A stretch of 38,105 bases of DNA from an uncultured Bacillales bacterium (GTDB lineage Bacteria > Bacillota_I > Bacilli_A > RF39 > UBA660). Below, one piece after another: positions 7,127 to 36,668 of the stretch. Position numbers and translations under genes: made by a program. The number at the start of each line of letters is the position of its first letter. The stretch's first letter is position 1. The notes beneath the pieces are model-generated. The model made no database searches and had not been told where the DNA came from. It saw nothing but the letters and a program-made list of their open reading frames with translations. Location of the stretch: positions 1 to 38,105 of the forward strand of contig CAMOXZ010000002.1 of the NCBI GenBank assembly GCA_946629545.1, in the 5' to 3' direction.

Positions 7127-8551
7127 ATGAATAATGATTCAATAACAAAAAGAAGCGAAGACTTTGCTAAATGGTATACAGATGTAGTACGTGCAGCAAA
7201 ACTAGCAGACTATACTTCAGTAAAAGGATGTATAGCTATTGAACCTAATGGATATGCTATTTGGGAAAAAATACAATCTATTATGGATAAAAAATTTAAA
7301 GAACTAGGACACGTAAATGTACAAATGCCGTTACTTATCCCAGAAAATTTATTTAATCAAGAAAAAGAACTAATTGAAGGATTTGCTCCAGAACTAGTTT
7401 GGGTTACTGAAGTAGGGGATAAGAAATTTGATGAAAGATTCGCAATAAGATCAACTTCTGAAACAGTATTCTGTGATTATTATAAAAAACATATCACTTC
7501 TTATAAAGATTTACCAAAATTATATAATCAATGGTGTAACGTATTTAGATATGAAAAAGAAACTAGACCATTTTTAAGAAGTAGAGAATTCTTATGGCAA
7601 GAAGGTCATACTGTTCATGCTACAGCAGAAGAAGCAGAAAAAGAGACTAAACAAATGATGGATGTATATGAATGGTTCAATCATGAAATATTAGCTATCC
7701 CATCAATTACTGGTAAGAAGACAAATAAAGAAAAATTTGCAGGAGCTGAATATACATTAACTAATGAAGACTTAATGTATAATGGTGTATGTCTACAAGA
7801 TGGAACTAGTCATTACTTTGGACAAAAATTCTCTAAAGCATATGATGTTAAATTTACTAATAAAGATAATAAAGATGAATATGCATACTATACTACTTGG
7901 GGAAAAACAACTAGAGCTATTGCTGCAATCATTATGGTACATGCTGATGATTATGGATTAGTATTACCTCCAAGAATTGCTCCAAAACAAGTAGTAATTA
8001 TCCCAATAGGAAATGATCCTAAAGTAGATGAACTTGCTAATAAGTATAAGGATGAATTATTAAAGAATGATGTAACTGCTTATATTGATGATTCAGAAAA
8101 ATCTCCAGGATTTAAATTTGCAGAAGCAGAAGTAAATGGTATTCCTATTAGAATAGAAGTAGGTAAGCGTGATTTAGAAAATAATAAAGTTACTTTTGTA
8201 AGACGTGATACAAGAGAAAAAATAGAAAAAACATTAGATGTTAATGTAGTAGAATTTACTAAAGAACTATTAGAAACAATTCAAAAAGATATGTATGATA
8301 GAGCACTAGAAAGAAGAGAACAATTAACTTTCGAAGCACACAATCTAGAAGATATGGAAAGAATTCTTAATACACAACCAGGATTTATTCATGCTATGTG
8401 GTGTGGTGATGAAGCTTGTGAAACAAGAATTAAAGAAATTAAGGGTTGTAAATCAAGATGTATTGTTGAAAACGGTGAAAAGATTGATGATAAATGTGTT
8501 TGCTGTGGAAAAGAAGCTAAACATCATGTTATCTGGGGAATTCAATATTAA
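7127..8551 (+). CDS. proS: Prolyl-tRNA synthetase, archaeal/eukaryote-like type (no INS editing domain)
   Basis: Class II aaRS motifs (FRYEKETRPFLRSREFLWQEGH; GTSHYFGQ). The 474-aa length and the C-terminal Cys cluster (WCGDEACE...CVCCGKEA) are typical of the short ProRS form. Confidence 0.92.
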   Translation: MNNDSITKRSEDFAKWYTDVVRAAKLADYTSVKGCIAIEPNGYAIWEKIQSIMDKKFKELGHVNVQMPLLIPENLFNQEKELIEGFAPELVWVTEVGDKKFDERFAIRSTSETVFCDYYKKHITSYKDLPKLYNQWCNVFRYEKETRPFLRSREFLWQEGHTVHATAEEAEKETKQMMDVYEWFNHEILAIPSITGKKTNKEKFAGAEYTLTNEDLMYNGVCLQDGTSHYFGQKFSKAYDVKFTNKDNKDEYAYYTTWGKTTRAIAAIIMVHADDYGLVLPPRIAPKQVVIIPIGNDPKVDELANKYKDELLKNDVTAYIDDSEKSPGFKFAEAEVNGIPIRIEVGKRDLENNKVTFVRRDTREKIEKTLDVNVVEFTKELLETIQKDMYDRALERREQLTFEAHNLEDMERILNTQPGFIHAMWCGDEACETRIKEIKGCKSRCIVENGEKIDDKCVCCGKEAKHHVIWGIQY

Positions 8552-25977: not shown

Positions 25978-26391
25978 ATGAATAACTATAAATACTATGA
26001 TTATTTGTATAGAAATAATATGAGTATGAATAATCAAAATTTGTTTAATCAACAAGAAGGTTTTTTTAAAGGAAATATGTTTTCAAATTTATATAGTGGG
26101 TATAAAAACTATATGCCACAAAGATTAAATCCAAGAAACGAACAAGAAAAAATGCTTTATGAATTAGATTCTATTAGTTTTGCAGCACATGAATTAAATC
26201 TATATTTGGATTTACATCCTGAAGATCAAAGTATGGTTACTTTATTTAACGATTATAGAAAAAAATTAGAGGAATTAACTAACACTTATGAATCTATGTA
26301 TGGACCATTAACAGTAAATTCCAATGAGATGGAAAATAAAACATTCTCATGGGTAAATACTTCTTGGCCATGGGAGGGAAGCAATGTTTAA
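25978..26391 (+). CDS. cotJB: Spore coat protein CotJB with a CotJA-like N-terminal extension
   Basis: The C-terminal half (FAAHELNLYLDLHPEDQ...YGPL...WPWE) matches CotJB. The N-terminal GFFKGNMFSNLYSGY resembles the CotJA GT(I/L)(F/W)P.LY..Y segment. AGGGAG RBS. Confidence 0.8.
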   Translation: MNNYKYYDYLYRNNMSMNNQNLFNQQEGFFKGNMFSNLYSGYKNYMPQRLNPRNEQEKMLYELDSISFAAHELNLYLDLHPEDQSMVTLFNDYRKKLEELTNTYESMYGPLTVNSNEMENKTFSWVNTSWPWEGSNV

Positions 26392-27028
26392 ATACGTTAA
26401 GAGATTACAATATCCAATTAATATTAAAAATAAAGATTTAAGAATGGCTAAATACTTAGTAACTCAATACGGAGGAGCCAATGGAGAATTAGGAGCAGCA
26501 TTACGTTATTTAAATCAAAGATTAACTATGCCAGATAATAAAGGTAAAGCTCTACTAAACGATATTGGTACAGAAGAACTAGGCCATGTTGAAATGTTAG
26601 AAACAATGATCTATCAATTAATGAAAGATGCTACTTTAGAAGAAATAAAAGAAGCAGGCCTTGATACTCATTATGCAGAACATGCAAAAGCCTTATTTCC
26701 AACAGATGCTAATGGTGTACCTTTCACAGCAACTTATTTTGCCACTACAGGAGATCCTCTAGCTGATCTTTCTGAGGATATGGCTGCTGAACAAAAAGCT
26801 AGAGCTGTTTATGAAAACTTAATAGACCTTACTGATGATCCTGATGTAATAGGACCACTTCTATGGTTAAGGCAAAGAGAGATAGTTCATTATGCTAGAT
26901 TTAAAGAATTATTTGAACACTATGAAAAGAAATTAAAAAATGGTAATAATGAAATAAAGAATACTAAATACATTCCAAACAATGACTACTTTATAACTAA
27001 TTTAAATAACTATGAAAACTATATGTAA
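26384..27028 (+). CDS. cotJC: Spore coat protein CotJC (manganese-catalase family)
   Basis: KRLQYPINIK..AKYLVTQYGGANGELGAALRYLNQR..DIGTEELGHVEM closely parallels B. subtilis CotJC. 8-nt overlap with cotJB. Confidence 0.92.
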   Translation: MFKYVKRLQYPINIKNKDLRMAKYLVTQYGGANGELGAALRYLNQRLTMPDNKGKALLNDIGTEELGHVEMLETMIYQLMKDATLEEIKEAGLDTHYAEHAKALFPTDANGVPFTATYFATTGDPLADLSEDMAAEQKARAVYENLIDLTDDPDVIGPLLWLRQREIVHYARFKELFEHYEKKLKNGNNEIKNTKYIPNNDYFITNLNNYENYM

Positions 27029-28651: not shown

Positions 28652-28678
28652 AAAAAGGAAATTAAATTTCCTTTTTTA
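28651..28678. terminator. Bidirectional terminator between convergent genes
   Basis: GGAAATT/AATTTCC palindrome flanked by an A-run and a T-run. Confidence 0.65.
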
Positions 28679-29387
28679 TTTGTTCAAATACTTTACCAAT
28701 AGAATCATGTATAACTAAATCACATAAATGATCATATTGAGTAATATCTTTGTTAATTAGAACCATATGTTTACCTCTAAAGTAATTAATAAATCCTGCA
28801 GCAGGATATACATTTAAACTAGTACCACCAATTATTAATAAATCACAACTAGCTATAGCTCTAATAGAATTCTTAATAGTATCTTCATCTAGACCTTCTT
28901 CATATAATACTACATCAGGTTTAATTATTCCTCCACAACTACATTTAGGAATACCATTAGATTCAAATACATATTTATCATCATAAAACTTATGACAGTC
29001 CATACAATAGTTTCTTTTTATAGATCCGTGTAGTTCATATACTGTTTTACTTCCAGCATCTTGATGAAATCCATCAATATTTTGAGTAATAACACAATCT
29101 AATTTATTTTTTTCTTCCATTAAACTTAATACTTCATGTGTAATATTAGGTTTAAAGTTTCTAGTATCTAATTTATCTTTATAGAATTTATAAAATTCTT
29201 CTGTCTTTTCTATAAAGAAAGAGTGCGATAATATCTCTTCTGGAGGATAATCATATTTCTCATTATATAATCCATCTTTACTTCTAAAATCTTTTAAACC
29301 AGACTCTGTGGAAACTCCAGCTCCACCAAAAAATACAGTAGAATTAGACTCTTTTATATACTTGATTAATGTCTCAATATCAGTCAT
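28662..29387 (-). CDS. cobB: NAD-dependent protein deacylase, Sir2 family
   Basis: GAGVSTESGLKDFRS, TQNIDGFH and HGS motifs, with a Zn module CMDCHK...CSCGG. Confidence 0.9.
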   Translation of the reverse strand: MTDIETLIKYIKESNSTVFFGGAGVSTESGLKDFRSKDGLYNEKYDYPPEEILSHSFFIEKTEEFYKFYKDKLDTRNFKPNITHEVLSLMEEKNKLDCVITQNIDGFHQDAGSKTVYELHGSIKRNYCMDCHKFYDDKYVFESNGIPKCSCGGIIKPDVVLYEEGLDEDTIKNSIRAIASCDLLIIGGTSLNVYPAAGFINYFRGKHMVLINKDITQYDHLCDLVIHDSIGKVFEQIKKEI

Positions 29388-29467: not shown

Positions 29468-29493
29468 GGTACATATCATTTGAGGTGATTGAA

Positions 29494-30087
29494 GTGAGAA
29501 AAACTAAAATTTTTAGTTGTCTTATCATAGTAGTTGCTGTAATGATGTTATCTATTGGCTTAATATTAGAAAGTGATAATAAGTTAACATCAGGTGCATT
29601 AGACATGAAAAACGCAGTTGCCAGTGCAATGAATGTTCAAGAAGGTAATAAAGAAGAAGTAGTTTCTGATTTATCTACTAATATTGAAATGGAAGCTGCA
29701 CCAGCTGCTTATTTAAAAATAGAAAAAGTATTTAGTGAAATAAGTACTGAAGAAGCCATTGCTGCTTTAAATGATGGAACATTAAAAATGGAATACTCTG
29801 CAGTATATTCATATAATGGTCTTAATAAAAGACGTGGTGCTATGTACTTTAATGGACATAGAGAAACTTACTATTCTGAAAAAGTATTACCTGGTAATGG
29901 ATTAAGAATTCCAGGAAGACACGTTGCAGACGATGGTACAATAAGAGATGAAAATGGATTTATCTGTGTAGCTGCAGATCCAGCATTCTTAGCTAAAGGA
30001 ACAATCCTAATCACATCATTAGGTCCTGCTAAAGTATATGACTGTGGATGTGCATATGGTACAGTAGATATCTACGTAAACTGGTAA
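29494..30087 (+). CDS. Secreted/membrane-anchored protein with a C-terminal 3D/DPBB-like (MltA/RlpA-type) domain
   Basis: N-terminal TM or signal sequence. The C-terminal VAADPAFLAKGTILITSLGPAKVYDCGCAYGTVDIYVNW resembles 3D-domain barrels. A GAGGTG RBS favours GTG 29494 (alternative start 29485). Confidence 0.5.
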   Translation: MRKTKIFSCLIIVVAVMMLSIGLILESDNKLTSGALDMKNAVASAMNVQEGNKEEVVSDLSTNIEMEAAPAAYLKIEKVFSEISTEEAIAALNDGTLKMEYSAVYSYNGLNKRRGAMYFNGHRETYYSEKVLPGNGLRIPGRHVADDGTIRDENGFICVAADPAFLAKGTILITSLGPAKVYDCGCAYGTVDIYVNW

Positions 30088-30167: not shown

Positions 30168-30734
30168 ATGATATGCCCAAAATGTAAAATGAAGATAAAT
30201 AATCCGGATTATTGCTTTCATTGTGGTTATATGTCCAATGGAAACGTAATTGAAACTAAAAAAACTGTTCCTACAATGCTAGAATTATACTTCAATGAAA
30301 AAGATGATAAATACATAAGAAATAGAAATTGGCTTGTTGCAGGTATTTTAGGACCAGTATATATTTTTTGTCATGGGTATTATGTAGTTGGATTATTACT
30401 AATTGTTTTAGATTATTTAGTTTCATTATTTTTCCTAATATTCAATCATGCATTATTGTATTACTATGTTGTCTTATTATTAAATGTTATTTACTTTGTA
30501 GTGAATAGAGTATTATGGGCAACAATTGGTAATATGATTTATCTTAAACTATTAACAAATAGACTAACAAAAATGAAAAATGATAACTATGAGTATTACA
30601 CAAAAGAAATCCAACAACTATATAAAAAAGATAATAAGTTAATAATATTAAAATATATTATATTTGGAATACTATTTATATTAATATTCTATTATATAAA
30701 AGAAGCTGTATATAATAATCTTGGACTTTTATAA
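30168..30734 (+). CDS. Zinc-ribbon plus DUF2628-like membrane protein (short paralogue of 21686-22867)
   Basis: CPKCKMKI..CFHCG zinc ribbon, then NWLVAGILGPVYIFCHGYY and TM helices. AGGAGG RBS. Confidence 0.6.
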   Translation: MICPKCKMKINNPDYCFHCGYMSNGNVIETKKTVPTMLELYFNEKDDKYIRNRNWLVAGILGPVYIFCHGYYVVGLLLIVLDYLVSLFFLIFNHALLYYYVVLLLNVIYFVVNRVLWATIGNMIYLKLLTNRLTKMKNDNYEYYTKEIQQLYKKDNKLIILKYIIFGILFILIFYYIKEAVYNNLGLL

Positions 30735-30780: not shown

Positions 30781-30809
30781 TTGACATTTTAGTCATTTTA
30801 TGCTATAAT
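30781..30809 (+). promoter_or_regulatory. Near-consensus promoter driving the candidate ncRNA
   Basis: TTGACA (30781-30786), 17-nt spacer, TGcTATAAT (30801-30809). This is the best promoter match I found in the window. Confidence 0.7.
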
Positions 30810-30815
30810 TATATA

Positions 30816-31444
30816 CGTAATTGATGGCACATTATTCTAGTCAATTACTTTATTATGAAGACGAGCTTAAAAATTCGTTAAAAGGCATATCTGTGAAACC
30901 TTTGGTGTTTGCTTCTTACGCCCAGTTTGGGGTGAATGCTGAAGATGAGAATCTTGGGAGATTCATAATGGCATATGAATTAGACCCATTATTCGTGGAG
31001 ACCAATTGTTGTGGTAAATCTATACGAACAACTTCTGATGATTTTATTACGAAATTGGATAGAACCTGTATTGTGGCGAAAGCTATGTGCAGTGTAGCCT
31101 GTCTTGCGTGAAGATTCTGGGATAAATGATCTCTTTTATTTTGGACGGCCACCTAAAATAAAAATTGCATTTTGAAATAGTCTTTGCAAAAAAGAATTAA
31201 TAATAGAGTGTTGGAGAGGAAATCTCCTAGAGTGTATTTTAATATAAGATTGCAGTGGGCACTAAGTGGTAATCAAGTCATATGAATGGAAACATCATAT
31301 TGATTCTTTTAAAGGGGAACCACAATATTGGTAACGATATTGTAAGAATCAGGGAAATCCTACTTGACCTATGGCTCAAAGTTAATTATATTGAATGCTA
31401 AACAATTTTAACAAAAAATAAGTAGTCAAACTACTTTTTTTTTT
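30816..31444 (+). ncRNA. Candidate large (about 630 nt) structured non-coding RNA; family not assignable by eye (size class of OLE/ROOL-type RNAs)
   Basis: It has its own promoter and terminator and no RBS-preceded ORF. G+C counted by hand is 28/60 (30901-30960) and 24/60 (31081-31140), against 14/60 in neighbouring coding DNA (31501-31560). Helices found: 30817-24/30841-48 (8 bp); 30949-54/30959-64; a GAAA-capped stem at 31072-87; GGAGA-GGAAA-TCTCC at 31213-27; 31280-85/31295-300; and 31301-08/31344-51 (8 bp) enclosing 31322-28/31337-43 (7 bp). Confidence 0.6.
31420..31444 (+). terminator. Intrinsic terminator ending the candidate ncRNA
   Basis: AAGTAG/CTACTT stem followed by 10 consecutive T. 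Confidence 0.65.
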
Positions 31445-31452
31445 GCTATAAT
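31444..31452 (+). promoter_or_regulatory. Extended -10 (TGcTATAAT) abutting the ncRNA terminator T-run; promoter for the downstream operon
   Basis: Read directly, 22 nt upstream of ATG 31475. It is the same TGCTATAAT 9-mer as the ncRNA promoter. Confidence 0.5.
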
Positions 31453-31474
31453 TATTATAGTATGGAGGTCTATT

Positions 31475-31963
31475 ATGGAATTAGATGATTGGAAAGACTT
31501 GGATTCTAATATAGAAGTCAAACTAGATAGAAAAGAATTTAAAATAACTGAGTTAAAACTAGAACACTATTGGAATTATGATATAGATGAAGGTATGCCT
31601 ATAAAGACAAGTGTAGAGTTAACTAGTAAACTTAATTTTGAAACAGATAAACTAGATTGGAAAAAGATTATTTCTCATACTTATAAAGATTTAGAAAACA
31701 ATGATGTAACTGACACATATGAAGAATTAGTAGATGATAGTATTATTAGTGAAATAGAAAAATATGATTTACGAGATTTAAATAATAATTATTATAATGA
31801 TTCAACACCTGAAAGTTATACTCACTGGGAATTAACATATAATAATTATTTTAAAATAGTAGGAACATATGATCTTGAAATAGAAGAAGTAACAAGAATT
31901 AAAAGACTACTAGATTTTAAAAGAATAATAGAAGAAGCAAAAGATAAAAACAAACTAAATTAG
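31475..31963 (+). CDS. Acidic 162-aa protein, function unknown
   Basis: GGAGG RBS. Rich in D/E/N/Y. No motif I recognise. Confidence 0.5.
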   Translation: MELDDWKDLDSNIEVKLDRKEFKITELKLEHYWNYDIDEGMPIKTSVELTSKLNFETDKLDWKKIISHTYKDLENNDVTDTYEELVDDSIISEIEKYDLRDLNNNYYNDSTPESYTHWELTYNNYFKIVGTYDLEIEEVTRIKRLLDFKRIIEEAKDKNKLN

Positions 31964-31973
31964 GAGTGATTGT

Positions 31974-33524
31974 ATGGGATTAATGAATATATATAATAAT
32001 GCAAGAAATCCTATTGATGACATTAATATAATTAATAAAATATTAGAATTATATGCAAATGGTAAATCATTATATCACAATATTGTACGTGTCTATAATA
32101 GAGTAGACTCAAGAAAGTATTCGATACCAGATTATAATGAATTATATGCTATGTTATTTAATAAATGGAAACAAAGTGTTGTTAGTATGACATATGAAGA
32201 ATATGTTAATTTATGTTCTAAAGGAGTATTAAAACAAGATTTTAAAAAACTAAGAAGCTTTTTAAAAACAGTACCTGATGTAAGTACTAAAGAAGAAGCT
32301 GATAAAATTTTATCTATAGAGACAAAAGATAAAGAACTACAAGATGCTATGTATAGATATAGATATAATTCATTTGGTGAAGCATCAGGTTGGGAACATT
32401 TTTATTCTAGATATATTCATGCTAAAAAAGATAAAGATGAACAAATAGATCATAGATTATATTTAAGTGTAGATAGTAGAGGACTTTTTCAAGTAGCAAA
32501 GTATTTTACTGAAATATGTGAAAAAGAAAATATACCATATTATTTTAAATATGATGTAGGTACATCTAGAGATGATTCAATGGTAGTATATTCATCTACA
32601 AAAAATTTAGAAAAATATATAGATATACTTAGAACTATTAAGAAAGAACATCCAGAATTAGAACAATTTTTAAATAAACCTCCAGTTCTTTCAGCACCAA
32701 TTGATGAATGGATTGGCTATGGTTCAGAACCAGTTTGTACTAAAGAAAATGGTGATAGATATTCATTTAATTCAATGAGAGAAGAAATAATTGAAAATGC
32801 AATTTCAAGTGTTACCGGTAAGTGGGTTAATGATCATAGAAATATGAATATAAATTTCCGTGGTAATAAAATTACTTTTGAAGAATATATTATTAATTGC
32901 ATAACAGATAGACAACGTATAGAGTTAAATAAGAAAATTAATTATTGGGAAAGTGAAAATATAAGAGTTGCTAAAGTTAAGGGAAAAGATTTTATACCAT
33001 ATGTTATTGAAGATATGGTTGGATGTACAAAAGCAGATGTTACAAATCCTAAATTTAGAGATTATTTATATAATAACCTATATAGTCAAAAAGATAGAAT
33101 TATGGATACTATAATTAGTGGAAATTATAAAGGAACACCTGACTTTAAAATTAATGGTAGAAATAATAAAAGTATTGGAGTTACAGGACAAGATATAAAG
33201 AAAACAATGTGTGTAATATATACTCAAATTTCAAAATTTGATCCTAATTATGCTAAAGATATTCAAACATATATAAAAGAAATTTCTGTTCAATATGGAG
33301 TAGATCCTAATAACTTTAGTTTTGATAAAAAAAGAGTACAAGATATGATGGTATATGATAAAAAAGTAGCAAGTCAAAACCAAGTACAAGAAGATAAAAA
33401 AGAGTTAAATGAAATGTTAAAAAAAGAAGTAGTTAAGCCTCGAAATAGATGGGCAAATGAAACAGATGAAGAGTATGAAAAATACTTAAAAGAGTTTTAT
33501 GGTGGGGAAGGTAATAGAATATGA
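31974..33524 (+). CDS. 516-aa protein with a central HopA1 / LanKC-N-terminal(lyase)-like segment, function unknown
   Basis: AGGAG RBS. DHRLYLSVD...IPYYFKYD...SRDDSMVVYSS...PPVLSAPI..GYGSEP follows the strand/FK/R.D..V.Y pattern I associate with the HopA1 and class III lanthionine synthetase N-terminal family. This is a resemblance only. Confidence 0.4.
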   Translation: MGLMNIYNNARNPIDDINIINKILELYANGKSLYHNIVRVYNRVDSRKYSIPDYNELYAMLFNKWKQSVVSMTYEEYVNLCSKGVLKQDFKKLRSFLKTVPDVSTKEEADKILSIETKDKELQDAMYRYRYNSFGEASGWEHFYSRYIHAKKDKDEQIDHRLYLSVDSRGLFQVAKYFTEICEKENIPYYFKYDVGTSRDDSMVVYSSTKNLEKYIDILRTIKKEHPELEQFLNKPPVLSAPIDEWIGYGSEPVCTKENGDRYSFNSMREEIIENAISSVTGKWVNDHRNMNINFRGNKITFEEYIINCITDRQRIELNKKINYWESENIRVAKVKGKDFIPYVIEDMVGCTKADVTNPKFRDYLYNNLYSQKDRIMDTIISGNYKGTPDFKINGRNNKSIGVTGQDIKKTMCVIYTQISKFDPNYAKDIQTYIKEISVQYGVDPNNFSFDKKRVQDMMVYDKKVASQNQVQEDKKELNEMLKKEVVKPRNRWANETDEEYEKYLKEFYGGEGNRI

Positions 33525-34114
33525 AACAAGAAACTAAAAAAACAGAATTAAAACAATTAGTAGAAGAGACTAAGAAAAAAGAAAGAATAAAAAAAGAAAA
33601 AGTAGATATTAAATGGCTAATCACAATAGTCATAGTAACATTTATTATCTCTTTTGGATTATCGTTTGTAGCTAATTCTACAATACCTAATTTATCTTTA
33701 ATATTTGGTATTATTATCACATTATTATTTATAGTAATAGGTATTATATTTGATATTATAGGAGTTTCCGTAACTAGTGCCGATGAAAAAGTATTCCACT
33801 CAATGGCTGCTCGTAAAGTAAAAGGTGCATCAACTGCAGTTAAACTAAAAAAGAATGCTGATAAAACAAGTAGTTTCTGCTGTGATGTAATAGGAGATAT
33901 TTGTGGAGTAATTTCAGGTGCTGCAGGTACTACAATATGTGCCATATTAGTAACTAAATATCATACAGATTTATTACTAACAGGTTTAATAATTACAGCT
34001 ATAATTTCATCATTCACAATAGGTGGAAAAGCATTAGGAAAAAGTTTTGCTATTAATAAAAGTGATATTATTCTATATGAATTTGCTAAAATTTTATCAA
34101 ATTTCTATCATTAG
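33521..34114 (+). CDS. 197-aa four-TM membrane protein with a Lys-rich N-terminal tail; DUF21/CNNM-transmembrane-like
   Basis: ATGA start/stop overlap with the upstream gene. The N-terminus is MKQETKKTELKQLVEETKKKERIKKEK. There are four hydrophobic helices. The segment TSADEKVFHSMAARKVKGASTAVKLKKNADKTSSF..GDICGVISGAAG resembles the SE.AL.S...L...G...A motif of DUF21. Confidence 0.45.
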   Translation: MKQETKKTELKQLVEETKKKERIKKEKVDIKWLITIVIVTFIISFGLSFVANSTIPNLSLIFGIIITLLFIVIGIIFDIIGVSVTSADEKVFHSMAARKVKGASTAVKLKKNADKTSSFCCDVIGDICGVISGAAGTTICAILVTKYHTDLLLTGLIITAIISSFTIGGKALGKSFAINKSDIILYEFAKILSNFYH

Positions 34115-34170
34115 TTTACAAAAAACAACTTATGTGTTATAGTAATGCACAAAACGAAAGGGAGTATTTT

Positions 34171-34839
34171 ATGGGATACAAGTTAGATGATAAAGATATC
34201 AAACTTACTGGAAAACAATGGACCAAAATAGGTACTGGTGTTAAAGGTGATGTTTATAAGTATCGTAATATGGCTTTAAAAGTATTTAAAGAAGATAGAG
34301 ATACTCCTATTGACGTTTATACTGCAGAATACTTAACAAGCATTTCAACAGATAGAATATTACTTCCACAAAATCTATTATTTTATAATAATTCATTTAA
34401 AGGTTATACATACAAACTAGTATCTAAAAGAGGATCTGGTCAAAGAATGATTATGTTACCAAAACAAGATCTAATTCAAGATATTAGAGTATTAGAAGAA
34501 GATATAAAAACATTAAGTAATAAGAGTGTATTATTAAATGGAATATCTCCAGAAAATAGTATATTTAATGGAGAACTATATTTAGTAGATCCAACAGAAT
34601 ATAGAGTATTAGAAAACTGTTCTACAAAAGAATTAGAAGAATTAAATAAATTCCAATTACACTTATTATTAACTACATTAATCTCACTAGAATTAAGAAG
34701 AAATAATTTTACTTCTAAAACAGAAAGAGATGTAAAAGAATTATTTAATTTAAGAGAAGTAGAAGAAAATAGTAGTAGATTCTTTAATGATATTATTGGT
34801 AATAATGAGTCAATAAAAGAATTTGTAAAGAAGATATAA
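34171..34839 (+). CDS. Small protein-kinase-like fold protein with an atypical catalytic loop
   Basis: GAAAGGGAG RBS before ATG 34171; the track start at 34132 has none. G-loop GTGVKG, beta3 Lys in MALKVFK, a catalytic-loop analogue LNGISPENSIF (the HRD Asp position is Gly), and YLVDP in place of DFG. Confidence 0.5.
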   Translation: MGYKLDDKDIKLTGKQWTKIGTGVKGDVYKYRNMALKVFKEDRDTPIDVYTAEYLTSISTDRILLPQNLLFYNNSFKGYTYKLVSKRGSGQRMIMLPKQDLIQDIRVLEEDIKTLSNKSVLLNGISPENSIFNGELYLVDPTEYRVLENCSTKELEELNKFQLHLLLTTLISLELRRNNFTSKTERDVKELFNLREVEENSSRFFNDIIGNNESIKEFVKKI

Positions 34840-34860
34840 TATTTAAGGAGGGTTAAGTTC

Positions 34861-35013
34861 ATGAATAAAGAACAAGTAGAAGAAATACTAAAAATGCATA
34901 ATGAACTTCTAGATGCAATGACAGAAGAAGAGAGAATACAGTTTTATGCAAAGTATGGAATGATAATAAAACCTAGAAAAGAAAATAACGAAGAAAAACC
35001 AAAGAGTAGATAA
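34861..35013 (+). CDS. 50-aa hydrophilic helical peptide, function unknown; not in the ORF track
   Basis: AAGGAGGG RBS at 34845-34852. Translation by hand: MNKEQVEEILKMHNELLDAMTEEERIQFYAKYGMIIKPRKENNEEKPKSR. A terminator follows immediately. Confidence 0.5.
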   Translation: MNKEQVEEILKMHNELLDAMTEEERIQFYAKYGMIIKPRKENNEEKPKSR

Positions 35014-35040
35014 AGACAAGAAAACTTGTCTTTTTATTTT
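35013..35040 (+). terminator. Intrinsic terminator closing the five-gene operon
   Basis: AGACAAG/CTTGTCT stem followed by TTTTTATTTT. Confidence 0.7.
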
Positions 35041-35078
35041 GTATATAGTAAAATATAATAAGTTTTGAGGTGATAAAA

Positions 35079-36668
35079 ATGATACAAGTAAGTAATGTAA
35101 GCCTAAAATTTGGAAAGAGAACACTTTTTGAAGATGTTAATTTAAAATTTACTAATGGAAACTGTTATGGTCTAATAGGAGCTAATGGTAGTGGTAAATC
35201 TACTTTCTTAAAACTATTAAGTGGAGAATTAGAAACTACTAGTGGTGAAATATCTATTACTAAAGGAGAAAGAATCTCTATCTTAAAACAAGACCATTAT
35301 GAATTTGATGATAAACGCGTAATGGATGTTGTATTAATGGGTAATACTAGATTATATGAAATAATGGTAGAAAAAGATAAGATGTATTCTCAAACAGAAT
35401 TCACTGATGAAGATGGTATGAAGTTAGCAAACTTAGAAGCTGAGTTCATGGAATTAGATGGATGGAATGCTGAAGCAGATGCTGCTACTTTATTAAATAA
35501 TTTAGGAGTAAATGAAGAATACCATTATATGGATATGAAAGATATACCAGTTAAATTAAGAGTTAAAGTATTACTTGCTCAAGCATTATTTGGTAACCCA
35601 GATATACTTCTATTAGATGAACCAACTAACTCATTAGACTTAGAAGCAATACGTTGGTTAGAAGAATTCTTAATTAATTTTAATAATACAGTAATTATAG
35701 TATCTCATGATAGATACTTCTTAAATAAAGTTTGCACACATATTGTGGATATTGATTATTCTAAAATGAAACTATATGTAGGTAACTATGATTTCTGGTA
35801 TGAATCAAGTGAATTATTACAAAAACAAATGAGAGAATCAAATAAAAAGAAAGAAGAAAAAATTAAAGAGTTACAAGCATTCATTGCAAGATTCTCAGCT
35901 AATGCATCAAAGTCTAAACAAGCCACATCTCGTAAGAAAATGCTAGAAAAGATTGAATTAGATGAAATAATTCCATCTTCAAGAAAATATCCATATATAG
36001 ATTTTAAAATAGAAAAAGAATCCGGAAAAGAAATATTAAAAGTAGAAAACTTAACTAAAGAAGTAGATGGAAAGAAAATACTAAATAAAGTAAGTTTCAC
36101 AGTATTAAAAGGTGATAAGATTTGCTTTATAGCATCTGATGACATGGTAAAAACAACACTTTTCAACATCTTAAGTGGAAAAGAAAAATATGATAAAGGA
36201 ACTATAGAGTGGGGTAAAACTATGAACCATGAATATCTTCCTCAAGATAATACAGAATACTTTAATAGTGATAAAAATATACTTGATTGGTTAGGGCAAT
36301 ACTACGATATTAAAGATGAAACAGTAACAAGAGGATTCTTAGGAAGAATGTTATTCTCGGGTGAAGATGTATTCAAAAAAGTAAATATTTTATCAGGTGG
36401 AGAAAAAGCAAGATGTATGTTATCAAAAATAATGTTACAAGAACCAAACTTCTTAATCTTAGATGAACCTACAAACCATTTAGATCTAGAAAGTATTACA
36501 TCTCTAAATAAAGGATTAGTAAACTTTAAAGGAGAAGTATTATTCACATCACGAGATTATGAATTAAATAGAACAGTAGCTAATAGAGTAATAGAAATAA
36601 AAGATGATGGAACTATTATTGATAGACCAATGACTTATGAACAATATCTAGAAGAAAGTAAAAAATAG
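35079..36668 (+). CDS. ABC-F family ATPase (two ABC cassettes, no TMD; YbiT/EttA-like translation factor class)
   Basis: Two Walker A, signature and Walker B sets (GANGSGKST, LLLDEPTN; LSGGEKARC, LILDEPTNHLD) with a charged inter-domain linker. A GAGGTG RBS favours ATG 35079. Confidence 0.88.
   Translation: MIQVSNVSLKFGKRTLFEDVNLKFTNGNCYGLIGANGSGKSTFLKLLSGELETTSGEISITKGERISILKQDHYEFDDKRVMDVVLMGNTRLYEIMVEKDKMYSQTEFTDEDGMKLANLEAEFMELDGWNAEADAATLLNNLGVNEEYHYMDMKDIPVKLRVKVLLAQALFGNPDILLLDEPTNSLDLEAIRWLEEFLINFNNTVIIVSHDRYFLNKVCTHIVDIDYSKMKLYVGNYDFWYESSELLQKQMRESNKKKEEKIKELQAFIARFSANASKSKQATSRKKMLEKIELDEIIPSSRKYPYIDFKIEKESGKEILKVENLTKEVDGKKILNKVSFTVLKGDKICFIASDDMVKTTLFNILSGKEKYDKGTIEWGKTMNHEYLPQDNTEYFNSDKNILDWLGQYYDIKDETVTRGFLGRMLFSGEDVFKKVNILSGGEKARCMLSKIMLQEPNFLILDEPTNHLDLESITSLNKGLVNFKGEVLFTSRDYELNRTVANRVIEIKDDGTIIDRPMTYEQYLEESKK

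Follow-up and report, generated by a model that had tools for sequence, protein, structure and literature searches.

OLE RNA is among the largest conserved bacterial RNAs, and its biochemical function is not yet known. To our knowledge, the known protein partners of this RNA all come from a single model species. OLE-associated membrane protein A (OapA) of Halalkalibacterium halodurans binds OLE RNA as a dimer and localizes it to the membrane (PMC12265935). The published hallmarks of this protein are its place as the commonest neighbor encoded immediately downstream of ole, its four transmembrane helices, positive charges grouped in a conserved cluster, and a weak homology to CNNM proteins (PMC12265935, PMC11332333); the positive cluster was described as lying on a cytoplasmic loop (PMC12265935, PMC11332333). 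Here, we analyzed a stretch of 38,105 nucleotides (nt), called the window throughout, from an uncultured Bacillales bacterium (contig CAMOXZ010000002.1 of assembly GCA_946629545.1), which belongs to an uncultured gut lineage of Bacilli with very low G+C content (27%). In this window a large RNA gene is followed by five closely packed genes, numbered 1 to 5 in the order of transcription. We conclude that the locus is quite probably ole-oapA, the gene pair of the OLE ribonucleoprotein, plus lineage-specific additions. The RNA-protein pair is a rediscovery of the known OLE-OapA pair; what is new is this variant of the locus and one good candidate partner, gene 4.

The likeness to the H. halodurans model lies in a full-length OLE RNA, a Bacillota host, and a downstream membrane protein of ~195 amino acids (aa) with four helices and a basic loop. 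Relatives of the window also share with the published description the direct adjacency of ole and oapA (PMC12265935, PMC11332333). The differences are of three kinds. The ole gene has here its own strong predicted promoter and its own terminator, whereas the ole gene of H. halodurans is part of a long polycistronic operon of isoprenoid and housekeeping genes (PMC12265935). The neighbors are genes for SIR2, glucosaminidase-like, mini-kinase, and ABC-F proteins, whereas the published neighborhood has ties to isoprenoid synthesis, translation, and DNA repair. Finally, two extra genes separate ole from oapA in the window. The locus would be a self-contained form of the ole-oapA unit, present in a large clade of uncultured gut bacteria, with a dedicated promoter, a terminator that acts as an attenuator, and a second promoter fused to this terminator.

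The ole-oapA pair and its transcription signals

The large RNA gene (30808..31417, + strand) matches the Rfam covariance model of OLE RNA, RF01071, from its first to its last position (window 30808-31417, model 1-616 of 616), scoring 376.3 bits where the gathering score is 50 (E 3e-107). Its nucleotide identity to OLE of related loci is 89-98%. The sequence-only reading, from which our study started, had described the large RNA and a small membrane protein as a module and had cited OLE as a precedent for such a pairing. The pairing is real, but OLE is not a mere precedent: on the full-length RF01071 match, the RNA is OLE itself and not an analog. The predicted ole promoter (30781..30809, + strand) is of the sigma-70 type. 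It consists of TTGACA, a 17-nt spacer, and the extended -10 element TGcTATAAT, and agrees with the consensus at 12 of 12 positions in addition to the TG.

Gene 3 (oapA; 33521..34114, + strand) encodes a protein of 197 aa and overlaps the end of gene 2 by ATGA; its orthologs lie directly 3' of OLE. To place it among its relatives we scanned loci seeded with OapA, taking one genome per species. This provided 80 loci, all from uncultured gut metagenome-assembled genomes (MAGs) labeled Bacilli, Erysipelotrichaceae, Mollicutes, Tenericutes, or similar, and OLE was searched with a profile made from five OLE sequences at the 73 loci that had enough upstream DNA. It was found on the same strand and upstream of the OapA homolog in 72 of these 73 loci, and the two genes were directly adjacent, with a gap under 160 nt, in 67 of the 73 species. 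The window's own oapA is 2.1 kb downstream of ole, with two genes between them, so it is not the immediate neighbor in this copy. OapA has more than 7,400 homologs, the closest 120 of which are 76-98% identical to it, and the orthologs among the species representatives are 57-98% identical.

A Kyte-Doolittle scan identified hydrophobic helices at residues 33-51, 58-76, ~119-145, and 151-169 of OapA. Four helices had been anticipated from the sequence, together with a poly-Lys tail. The helices were recovered and the tail was not, since the Lys-rich stretch is at the N-terminus (residues ~18-27). A second basic cluster occupies the loop between R98 and K115, in which R98, K101, K110, K111, and K115 are invariant among 23 sequences. 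In its helices, its basic loop, and the place of its orthologs, gene 3 shows the published hallmarks of OapA, and therefore the pair formed by the RNA and the small membrane protein is the known OLE-OapA pair; judging from sequence and position, gene 3 is OapA, the known membrane partner of OLE. The function of membrane anchor, established in H. halodurans, would by analogy be exerted here as well.

The end of ole carries a compact arrangement of transcription signals. The intrinsic terminator (31420..31444, + strand) has a 7-bp stem with arms AAGTAGT and ACTACTT (hairpin 31420-31436), the loop CAA, and a run of 10 T (31435-31444). The last T of this run is the first base of a second extended -10 element, TGcTATAAT (31444..31452, + strand), which overlaps the end of the terminator and is the predicted promoter of the oapA operon. 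The same 9-mer, TGCTATAAT, is thus present twice, at 30801-30809 within the ole promoter and at 31444-31452. The gene set is closed by another intrinsic terminator (35012..35040, + strand), a 9-bp stem (hairpin 35012-35033) with a T-tail, and this hairpin is conserved 3' of gene 4 in the loci L010 and L012, both of which lack gene 5. These signals had all been noticed by the sequence-only reading: the T-run passing directly into TGcTATAAT, the identity of that 9-mer with the -10 element of the RNA's own promoter, and the closing terminator could each be confirmed in the sequence.

The junction between terminator and promoter exceeds chance. A hairpin with a T-run follows OLE in 77 of 88 loci, and of the 74 distinct junction sequences 89% reach a folding energy of -3.5 kcal/mol or better, a level attained by 8% of shuffles. 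The stem arms occur in 29 different versions, and therefore it is the structure that is conserved and not the sequence. An extended -10 element follows the T-run in 39% of the distinct junctions, compared with 3% of random windows. The order of hairpin, T-run, and TGnTATAAT is also found where oapA directly follows ole (L010, L012, L014, and L016). In other relatives (L047, L055, L069, and L092 among them) the ribosome-binding site of oapA comes ~10-20 nt after the T-run, which leaves no space for a promoter, and therefore oapA is expressible there solely by read-through. The proposal that transcripts of the RNA extend through the terminator into the operon is plausible in this light, and the promoterless junctions of relatives would lend support to read-through in the window's clade as well. 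This architecture suggests that the ole terminator may act as an attenuator that sets a high ratio of OLE to OapA. The strong promoter at 30781-30809 would drive OLE, which would end at the conserved but weak terminator at 31420-31444, and the -10 element fused to the T-run, together with read-through, would express the downstream genes as far as the terminator at 35012-35040.

A kinase-fold gene downstream of oapA

Gene 4 (34171..34839, + strand) encodes a 222-aa protein with a minimal protein-kinase fold. Its open reading frame (ORF) is open from 34132, and the true start is the ATG at 34171, which is preceded by a GGGAG ribosome-binding site and at which all homologs start. The AlphaFold model has a predicted local distance difference test score (pLDDT) of 91, and a fold search of the PDB returned 1422 matches at E<=1e-3, all of those listed being kinases. 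The protein retains the Gly-rich loop, Lys37, Asn129, and Asp140, and has Gly124 at the position of the catalytic Asp. Because this Asp is replaced by Gly, we classify gene 4 as a putative pseudokinase. An alignment of 28 sequences has 33 invariant columns, including G23, G26, and K37. The catalytic position is occupied by Gly in 34 of 40 close homologs and by Asp in all 31 distant ones, which also keep the Asn and the DPG motif; in a sub-branch of the L018 type, the Lys, the Asn, and the metal-binding Asp are lost in addition. An exhaustive profile search of 1.84 billion representatives gave 535 clusters for the family, nearly all of ~220 aa and a few of them tandem fusions.

Bacterial pseudokinases and minimal kinase-like proteins share with gene 4 a bilobal fold in ~220 aa, the Gly-loop, the ATP-binding Lys, the catalytic-loop Asn, and the metal-binding Asp, along with the loss of the catalytic Asp. 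The family of gene 4 differs from them in being small and, as sampled, confined to the position after oapA. It is also distinct in that even its catalytically intact members match no Pfam kinase family, so that the family is not placed in a known kinase group. Gene 4 itself matched no Pfam, NCBIfam, or PADLOC model.

The family is found downstream of oapA in 44 of the 75 OapA-seeded species loci, and in 43 of them it is directly after oapA. Tandem arrays of two or three copies occur in 11 of the OapA-seeded loci. When the search was made in the opposite direction, with homologs of gene 4, OLE-oapA was immediately upstream in 6 of the 6 loci that were reached. The conserved core of the locus would accordingly run from ole to oapA to the gene with the mini-kinase fold, and then to an ABC-F gene. 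We found no report of a kinase-like or HopA1-like neighbor of ole in the literature that we searched, which did not comprise the 2023 review of top ole neighbors. Gene 4 is a credible, previously unreported, and clade-specific candidate for an OLE-associated protein, judging from its conserved place. Kept directly after oapA in so many species, it provides a concrete candidate for a new OLE partner, and it could be a pseudokinase with a regulatory or scaffolding role that is tied to OapA and the OLE particle.

A bolder version of this proposal would make the ~220-aa kinase-fold family, within this clade of gut Bacilli, a true component of the OLE ribonucleoprotein or its signaling output, with active members in some species and a pseudokinase in the window, and with the product of gene 2, a putative phospho-lyase, erasing irreversibly the mark on the same phosphoproteins. 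We regard this version as improbable. If it were true, the proposed 'bTOR' stress-regulator model of OLE would gain a first kinase arm and a first phospho-lyase arm.

Loci with several copies of the gene-4 family downstream of oapA include L022, L034, L041, L043, L044, L054, L075, L088, L094, and L097, and a fused double-domain protein is encoded at L061 (3414-4826). These multi-copy or fused members come from more distant species and have an intact catalytic Asp, Asn, and DPG motif, whereas the sub-lineage of the window has a single copy that lacks the catalytic Asp. One ortholog that bears the Asp is encoded at L043 (9337-10032).

The cassette between ole and oapA and competing explanations of the gene set

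Proteins of the family PF17914 (LanY) are phospho-Ser/Thr lyases that act with a kinase in the biosynthesis of class V lanthipeptides, and are kin of the effectors OspF and SpvC (PMC9486802, PMC10604976). The phosphothreonine lyases OspF, SpvC, and HopAI1 remove the phosphate irreversibly from the phospho-Thr of target kinases (PMC9486802, PMC10604976). LanY homologs usually co-occur with a kinase (PMC9486802), and in one of them, CaoY, the residues R187, K219, R229, and Y236 have been mutagenized (PMC9486802).

The two genes between ole and oapA form a cassette. Gene 1 (31475..31963, + strand), its first half, encodes an acidic protein of 162 aa (pI 4.5) and is the obligate upstream partner of gene 2 (31974..33524, + strand), which encodes a 516-aa protein of the HopA1/LanY phospho-Ser/Thr-lyase-like type. 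The latter matches the Pfam HopA1 family PF17914 at residues 152-279 with 37.6 bits against a cut-off of 22.7 (E 2.7e-9), and by this match gene 2 is a member of the HopA1/LanY family and a putative lyase. Its homologs form 304 clusters. Among them, the homolog at L087 passes the PF17914 cut-off (27.3 bits), and longer forms of 727 and 755 aa are just under it. Single-sequence and profile searches of gene 2 against the sequences of solved structures gave nothing useful. Family alignment shows that R161, K192, R199, and Y206 are invariant, with a spacing like that of the four mutagenized residues of CaoY. Gene 1 matched nothing in Pfam, NCBIfam, or PADLOC. The 183-aa proteins encoded ahead of the 727- and 755-aa homologs of gene 2 share 54-55% identity with it (E 1e-55), and the conserved core of the gene-1 family reads NYFTEExPExYTHWELTYNNxFKIVGTYD in the alignment. 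Gene 2 would remove phosphate from phosphoproteins by beta-elimination, with the acidic product of gene 1 as a possible inhibitor or adaptor.

The lyases of class V and class III lanthipeptide systems (LanY and LanKC) are the nearest described relatives, in that gene 2 shares with them PF17914, its best though weak fold matches, and a similar Arg-Lys-Arg-Tyr spacing, and in that a kinase-fold protein is encoded in the same operon. Gene 2 differs from them by its length of 516 aa, with large additional helical regions at both termini, and by its constant partner, which is the acidic protein instead of a kinase; the kinase-fold protein encoded nearby has lost the catalytic Asp and has a distribution of its own. 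There is also no recognizable precursor peptide, cyclase, or exporter at the window locus. HopA1, with ShcA, and OspF, SpvC, and HopAI1 belong with gene 2 to the same Pfam family and probably to the same fold class. In our case the bacterium is a Gram-positive inhabitant of the gut, and none of the loci examined held type III secretion genes, a statement that covers these loci and not whole genomes. A small acidic chaperone gene, shcA, precedes hopA1, which we mention as a lead and do not use as support.

The distribution of the cassette is patchy. Gene 1 accompanies gene 2 in all cases. The cassette is present in the window (the same as L101), L001-3, L018, L019/20, and L117, where it lies between the TGnTATAAT element and oapA, and the gene-2 proteins of this slot make a clade of their own in a neighbor-joining tree. 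A contig identical to the window is AUXO010245757. It was found in the ole-oapA slot of 0 of the 80 species representatives. Locus L016 is nearly identical to the window (OLE 98%, OapA 92%, gene 4 93%, and ABC-F 97%), yet it lacks genes 1, 2, and 5. In L106 there is only a 204-aa C-terminal remnant of gene 2, from which the catalytic half is gone. The 727- and 755-aa forms lie at other sites, in an island with KilA-N and resolvase genes (L004-6) or between ftsZ and tsaE beside tRNA genes (L007-9), and OLE, oapA, and gene 4 were all absent within 7 kb of these cassettes. The cassette is by far the most divergent part of the locus: in identity to the window, gene 2 reaches 44-50% and gene 1 52-68%, whereas OapA is at 81-92% and ABC-F at 90-97%. 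Genes 1 and 2 are thus an optional, separable, and fast-evolving cassette placed between the oapA promoter and the oapA start codon.

We lean toward the view that the cassette is a hitch-hiker, for example a phospho-lyase of conflict or regulation with an acidic inhibitor or adaptor, lodged at a strongly expressed and permissive site. That it is an accessory factor of the OLE particle is conceivable, and rather unlikely. In either case, a phospho-Ser/Thr-lyase cassette at this place is a clue, either to phospho-signaling around the OLE particle or to selfish genes that exploit a highly expressed site. A phage or defense origin was also considered. The five window proteins and the 727- and 755-aa homologs matched no PADLOC model and hence no known anti-phage defense or toxin-antitoxin system covered by these models, the cassette had no significant match among PHROGs, no relatives of gene 2 were found in viral contigs, and viral structures gave no meaningful match; the G+C content of the cassette matches that of the host. 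Such an origin is conceivable, and these searches lend it no support.

Several observations weigh against our account of the locus as ole-oapA with separable additions. On the side of the pair itself, OapA matches the CNNM/DUF21 family PF01595 at residues 65-195 with only 21.2 bits, under the cut-off of 28.4 (E 2.5e-4), and its profile found no match among PDB sequences. The Mg2+ transporters MpfA, CorB, and CNNM, to whose transmembrane domain OapA has been reported to be weakly homologous (PMC11332333), are thus the family that the window protein resembles weakly, and it differs from them in lacking CBS and CorC domains. The promoter at 31444-31452 and the read-through are both predictions, and the transcript structure is deduced from them. 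As for gene 4, its adjacency to oapA could reflect shared ancestry within one clade and not function. On the side of the cassette, all gene-2 homologs of the window's clade whose context was examined are in the ole-oapA slot, and the ATGA shared by the stop of gene 2 and the start of oapA suggests translational coupling. The deep-outgroup cassette of L087 is ~1.4 kb from OLE, on the opposite strand. The unlinked 727- and 755-aa forms come from genomes of equally low G+C content (~26%), in which OLE may be present elsewhere. The lyase assignment has its own weaknesses. The gene-2 model has a pLDDT of 81, and its best PDB folds are SalKC and ThurKC, both class III lanthipeptide synthetases, LxmY, which is the lyase of the LxmKY dehydratase, and HopA1, all of them weak matches: the fold matches span E 0.02-0.6 with a TM-score <0.2 over the whole 516 residues, and the top six Foldseek matches have E 0.025-0.29 and probability 0.47-0.97, with ~150 aligned columns in the best-superposed ones. 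The mapping of the putative catalytic residues follows from their spacing relative to CaoY.

The cassette of L087 (4516-6388, - strand; OLE at 7319-7906), which lies upstream of OLE, is 33-37% identical to all others and is separated from OLE by a glucosaminidase-like gene, a second and possibly independent placement near OLE.

The sequence-only reading had taken all five genes as one dedicated RNA-protein module, and this is the part that did not survive. Its description of five closely packed ORFs with short gaps or an ATGA overlap was accurate (the gaps are 10, -4 for the ATGA overlap, 17, or 56 from the start at 34171, and 21 nt). Its HopA1/LanKC-like and altered-kinase labels were both borne out, by the PF17914 match and by a kinase fold without the catalytic Asp, and only the start of the kinase-like gene had to be moved to 34171. 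The comparison of neighborhoods that it proposed gave a divided answer: co-occurrence with OLE holds for OapA (adjacent in 67/73) and, within the clade, for gene 4 (44/75), and fails for genes 1, 2, and 5, because these are absent from the ole-oapA slot in 80 of 80 species representatives and from L016. An explanation that makes every one of the five proteins a dedicated partner of the large RNA, working as one machine from one read-through transcript, can draw on the tight packing of the genes between one promoter and one terminator, on the identical five-gene order in L001-3 and L101, on the restriction of the clade's gene-2 proteins to the slot, on the overlap of gene 2 with oapA, and on the L087 cassette near OLE. 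We consider it very unlikely, given the absences just mentioned, the decay of gene 2 in L106, the homologous cassettes at unrelated sites, the independence of gene 5 from the cassette (L018 and L019 have the cassette without gene 5), and the unrelated genes that fill the slot in other species. Genes 2, 4, and 5 might be a split LanK/LanY dehydratase with its precursor peptide, of a class V lanthipeptide or a thioamitide, unrelated to OLE and merely inserted beside it. The PF17914 match, the best folds among LanKC lyase domains and LxmY, the usual pairing of LanY homologs with a kinase (PMC9486802), the kinase fold of gene 4, and the 50-aa ORF that follows it all point in that direction. Yet gene 4 lacks the catalytic Asp and has no match to the APH family (PF01636), it occurs without gene 2 in at least 44 species, and gene 2 occurs without a kinase-like gene in L004-L009. 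The peptide of gene 5 has 0 Cys and 2 Ser/Thr, unlike a Ser/Thr/Cys-rich precursor, and is absent from the other cassette loci, and no cyclase, protease, or exporter gene is present. With the catalytic Asp gone, independent gene distributions, and an unsuitable peptide, we rejected such a cluster for ribosomally made peptides with post-translational modifications (RiPPs) as hardly credible.

For gene 4, the competing explanation is phylogenetic inertia, with an unrelated and decaying kinase gene that happens to sit between oapA and the ABC-F gene and has no tie to OLE. The family is missing in 31 of the 75 species, where the ABC-F gene is often directly after oapA; gene 4 evolves fast (50-93% identity, vs 90-97% for ABC-F); its catalytic residues have been lost stepwise; and the evidence all comes from one clade of gut MAGs. 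Against inertia, 43 of the 44 species with a downstream family member carry it directly after oapA, and this placement holds with two or three tandem copies and across a divergence of OapA down to 57% identity. The proteins remain full-length and well folded, as their pLDDT and invariant columns indicate, no copy of gene 4 was found elsewhere within +/-8 kb, and all six loci seeded with the family are at oapA. We judge inertia unlikely, and retain gene 4 as a candidate partner within an ole-oapA locus.

Other genes of the slot and of the neighborhood

Gene 5 (34861..35013, + strand) is a lineage-specific ORF of 50 aa with a ribosome-binding site. Its only homolog is in L001-3 and in L101, the latter identical to the window; L010, L012, L014, L016, L018, and L019, and 80 of the 80 species representatives, have no such gene at this position. 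The cassette loci L018, L019, and L117 lack it, and therefore gene 5 is independent of the cassette. It is an orphan small ORF known from just two lineages.

The spacer between ole and oapA is a variable slot in other species too, where it holds unrelated genes, and it appears to be a place that collects fast-evolving genes. One family of 103-151-aa proteins, with ...LEEMFKDDDKVVVF..K at the end, has its genes directly upstream of oapA in L039 (7591-7902), L041 (3291-3746), L043 (7593-7988), and L074 (2966-3289, after a 916-aa protein). It had no Pfam match and could be another lineage-specific protein of OLE loci. A 201-aa Cys-rich protein with many CxxC-like spacings occupies the slot in L063 (7409-8014). 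The 916-aa protein of L074 (156-2906) is unrelated to gene 2 and has an internal repeat of ~90 aa flanking an ETDEEY motif; a Cys/His stretch in it resembles, by eye, the core of transglutaminase-type cysteine proteases, and it had no Pfam match.

Gene 2 ends with the motif KPRxRxxNETDEEYEKYLKEFY (window 33440-33524). In 101 loci, 8 of 8 matches of this motif lay between ole and oapA, including the one in the 916-aa protein of L074. A scan of metagenomes found it also in many proteins of 337-1613 aa that are unrelated and have no OLE nearby (L103-L114), often as tandem copies. We therefore discarded the possibility that the motif is a docking peptide for OLE or OapA, since it is present in many unrelated proteins away from OLE. 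The wider module, (PGT..)KPRxRxxxE(T/S)DEEYxx(Y/F)LxE(F/Y)Y, recurs in uncharacterized proteins of low-GC gut metagenomes, most of them not near OLE and none with a Pfam match.

Downstream, an ABC-F ATPase gene (35070..36668, + strand) would form its own transcription unit, and its orthologs have two ABC_tran domains and one ABC_tran_Xtn domain. It is found downstream of oapA in 59 of 75 species representatives, with 90-97% identity, and is a near-constant downstream neighbor of the unit formed by oapA and the kinase-like gene (window 35070-36668 and L010-L100). ABC-F proteins are usually associated with ribosomes, and the OLE particle has been linked in published work to the ribosomal protein bS21. 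This neighbor may deserve attention in view of the link between OLE and bS21.

Upstream, the immediate neighbor of ole is a gene of 188 aa (window 30168-30734) with an N-terminal zinc-ribbon-like CxxC...CxxC and hydrophobic segments. It is variable: only the window, L012/13, and L029 have it, and in L014/15, L115, and L116 its place is taken by unrelated genes, of 359-365 aa or 1002 aa. A gene for a membrane-anchored protein of 200 aa (window 29485-30087) is conserved across the clade. Its counterpart in L087 (6532-7227) matches Glucosaminidase PF01832 (E 4e-8), which makes a cell-wall hydrolase-like gene a steady neighbor of OLE. Beside it, a SIR2 deacetylase gene (28662-29387) is divergently transcribed. 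Further away, the ORFs at 25978-26391 and 26384-27028 correspond, by position, to the spore-coat genes for CotJB and a CotJC-like manganese catalase, which lie 4-5 kb upstream of ole in relatives. Their placement fits the published correlation between OLE and sporulation genes, and some records label these organisms Mollicutes or Tenericutes.

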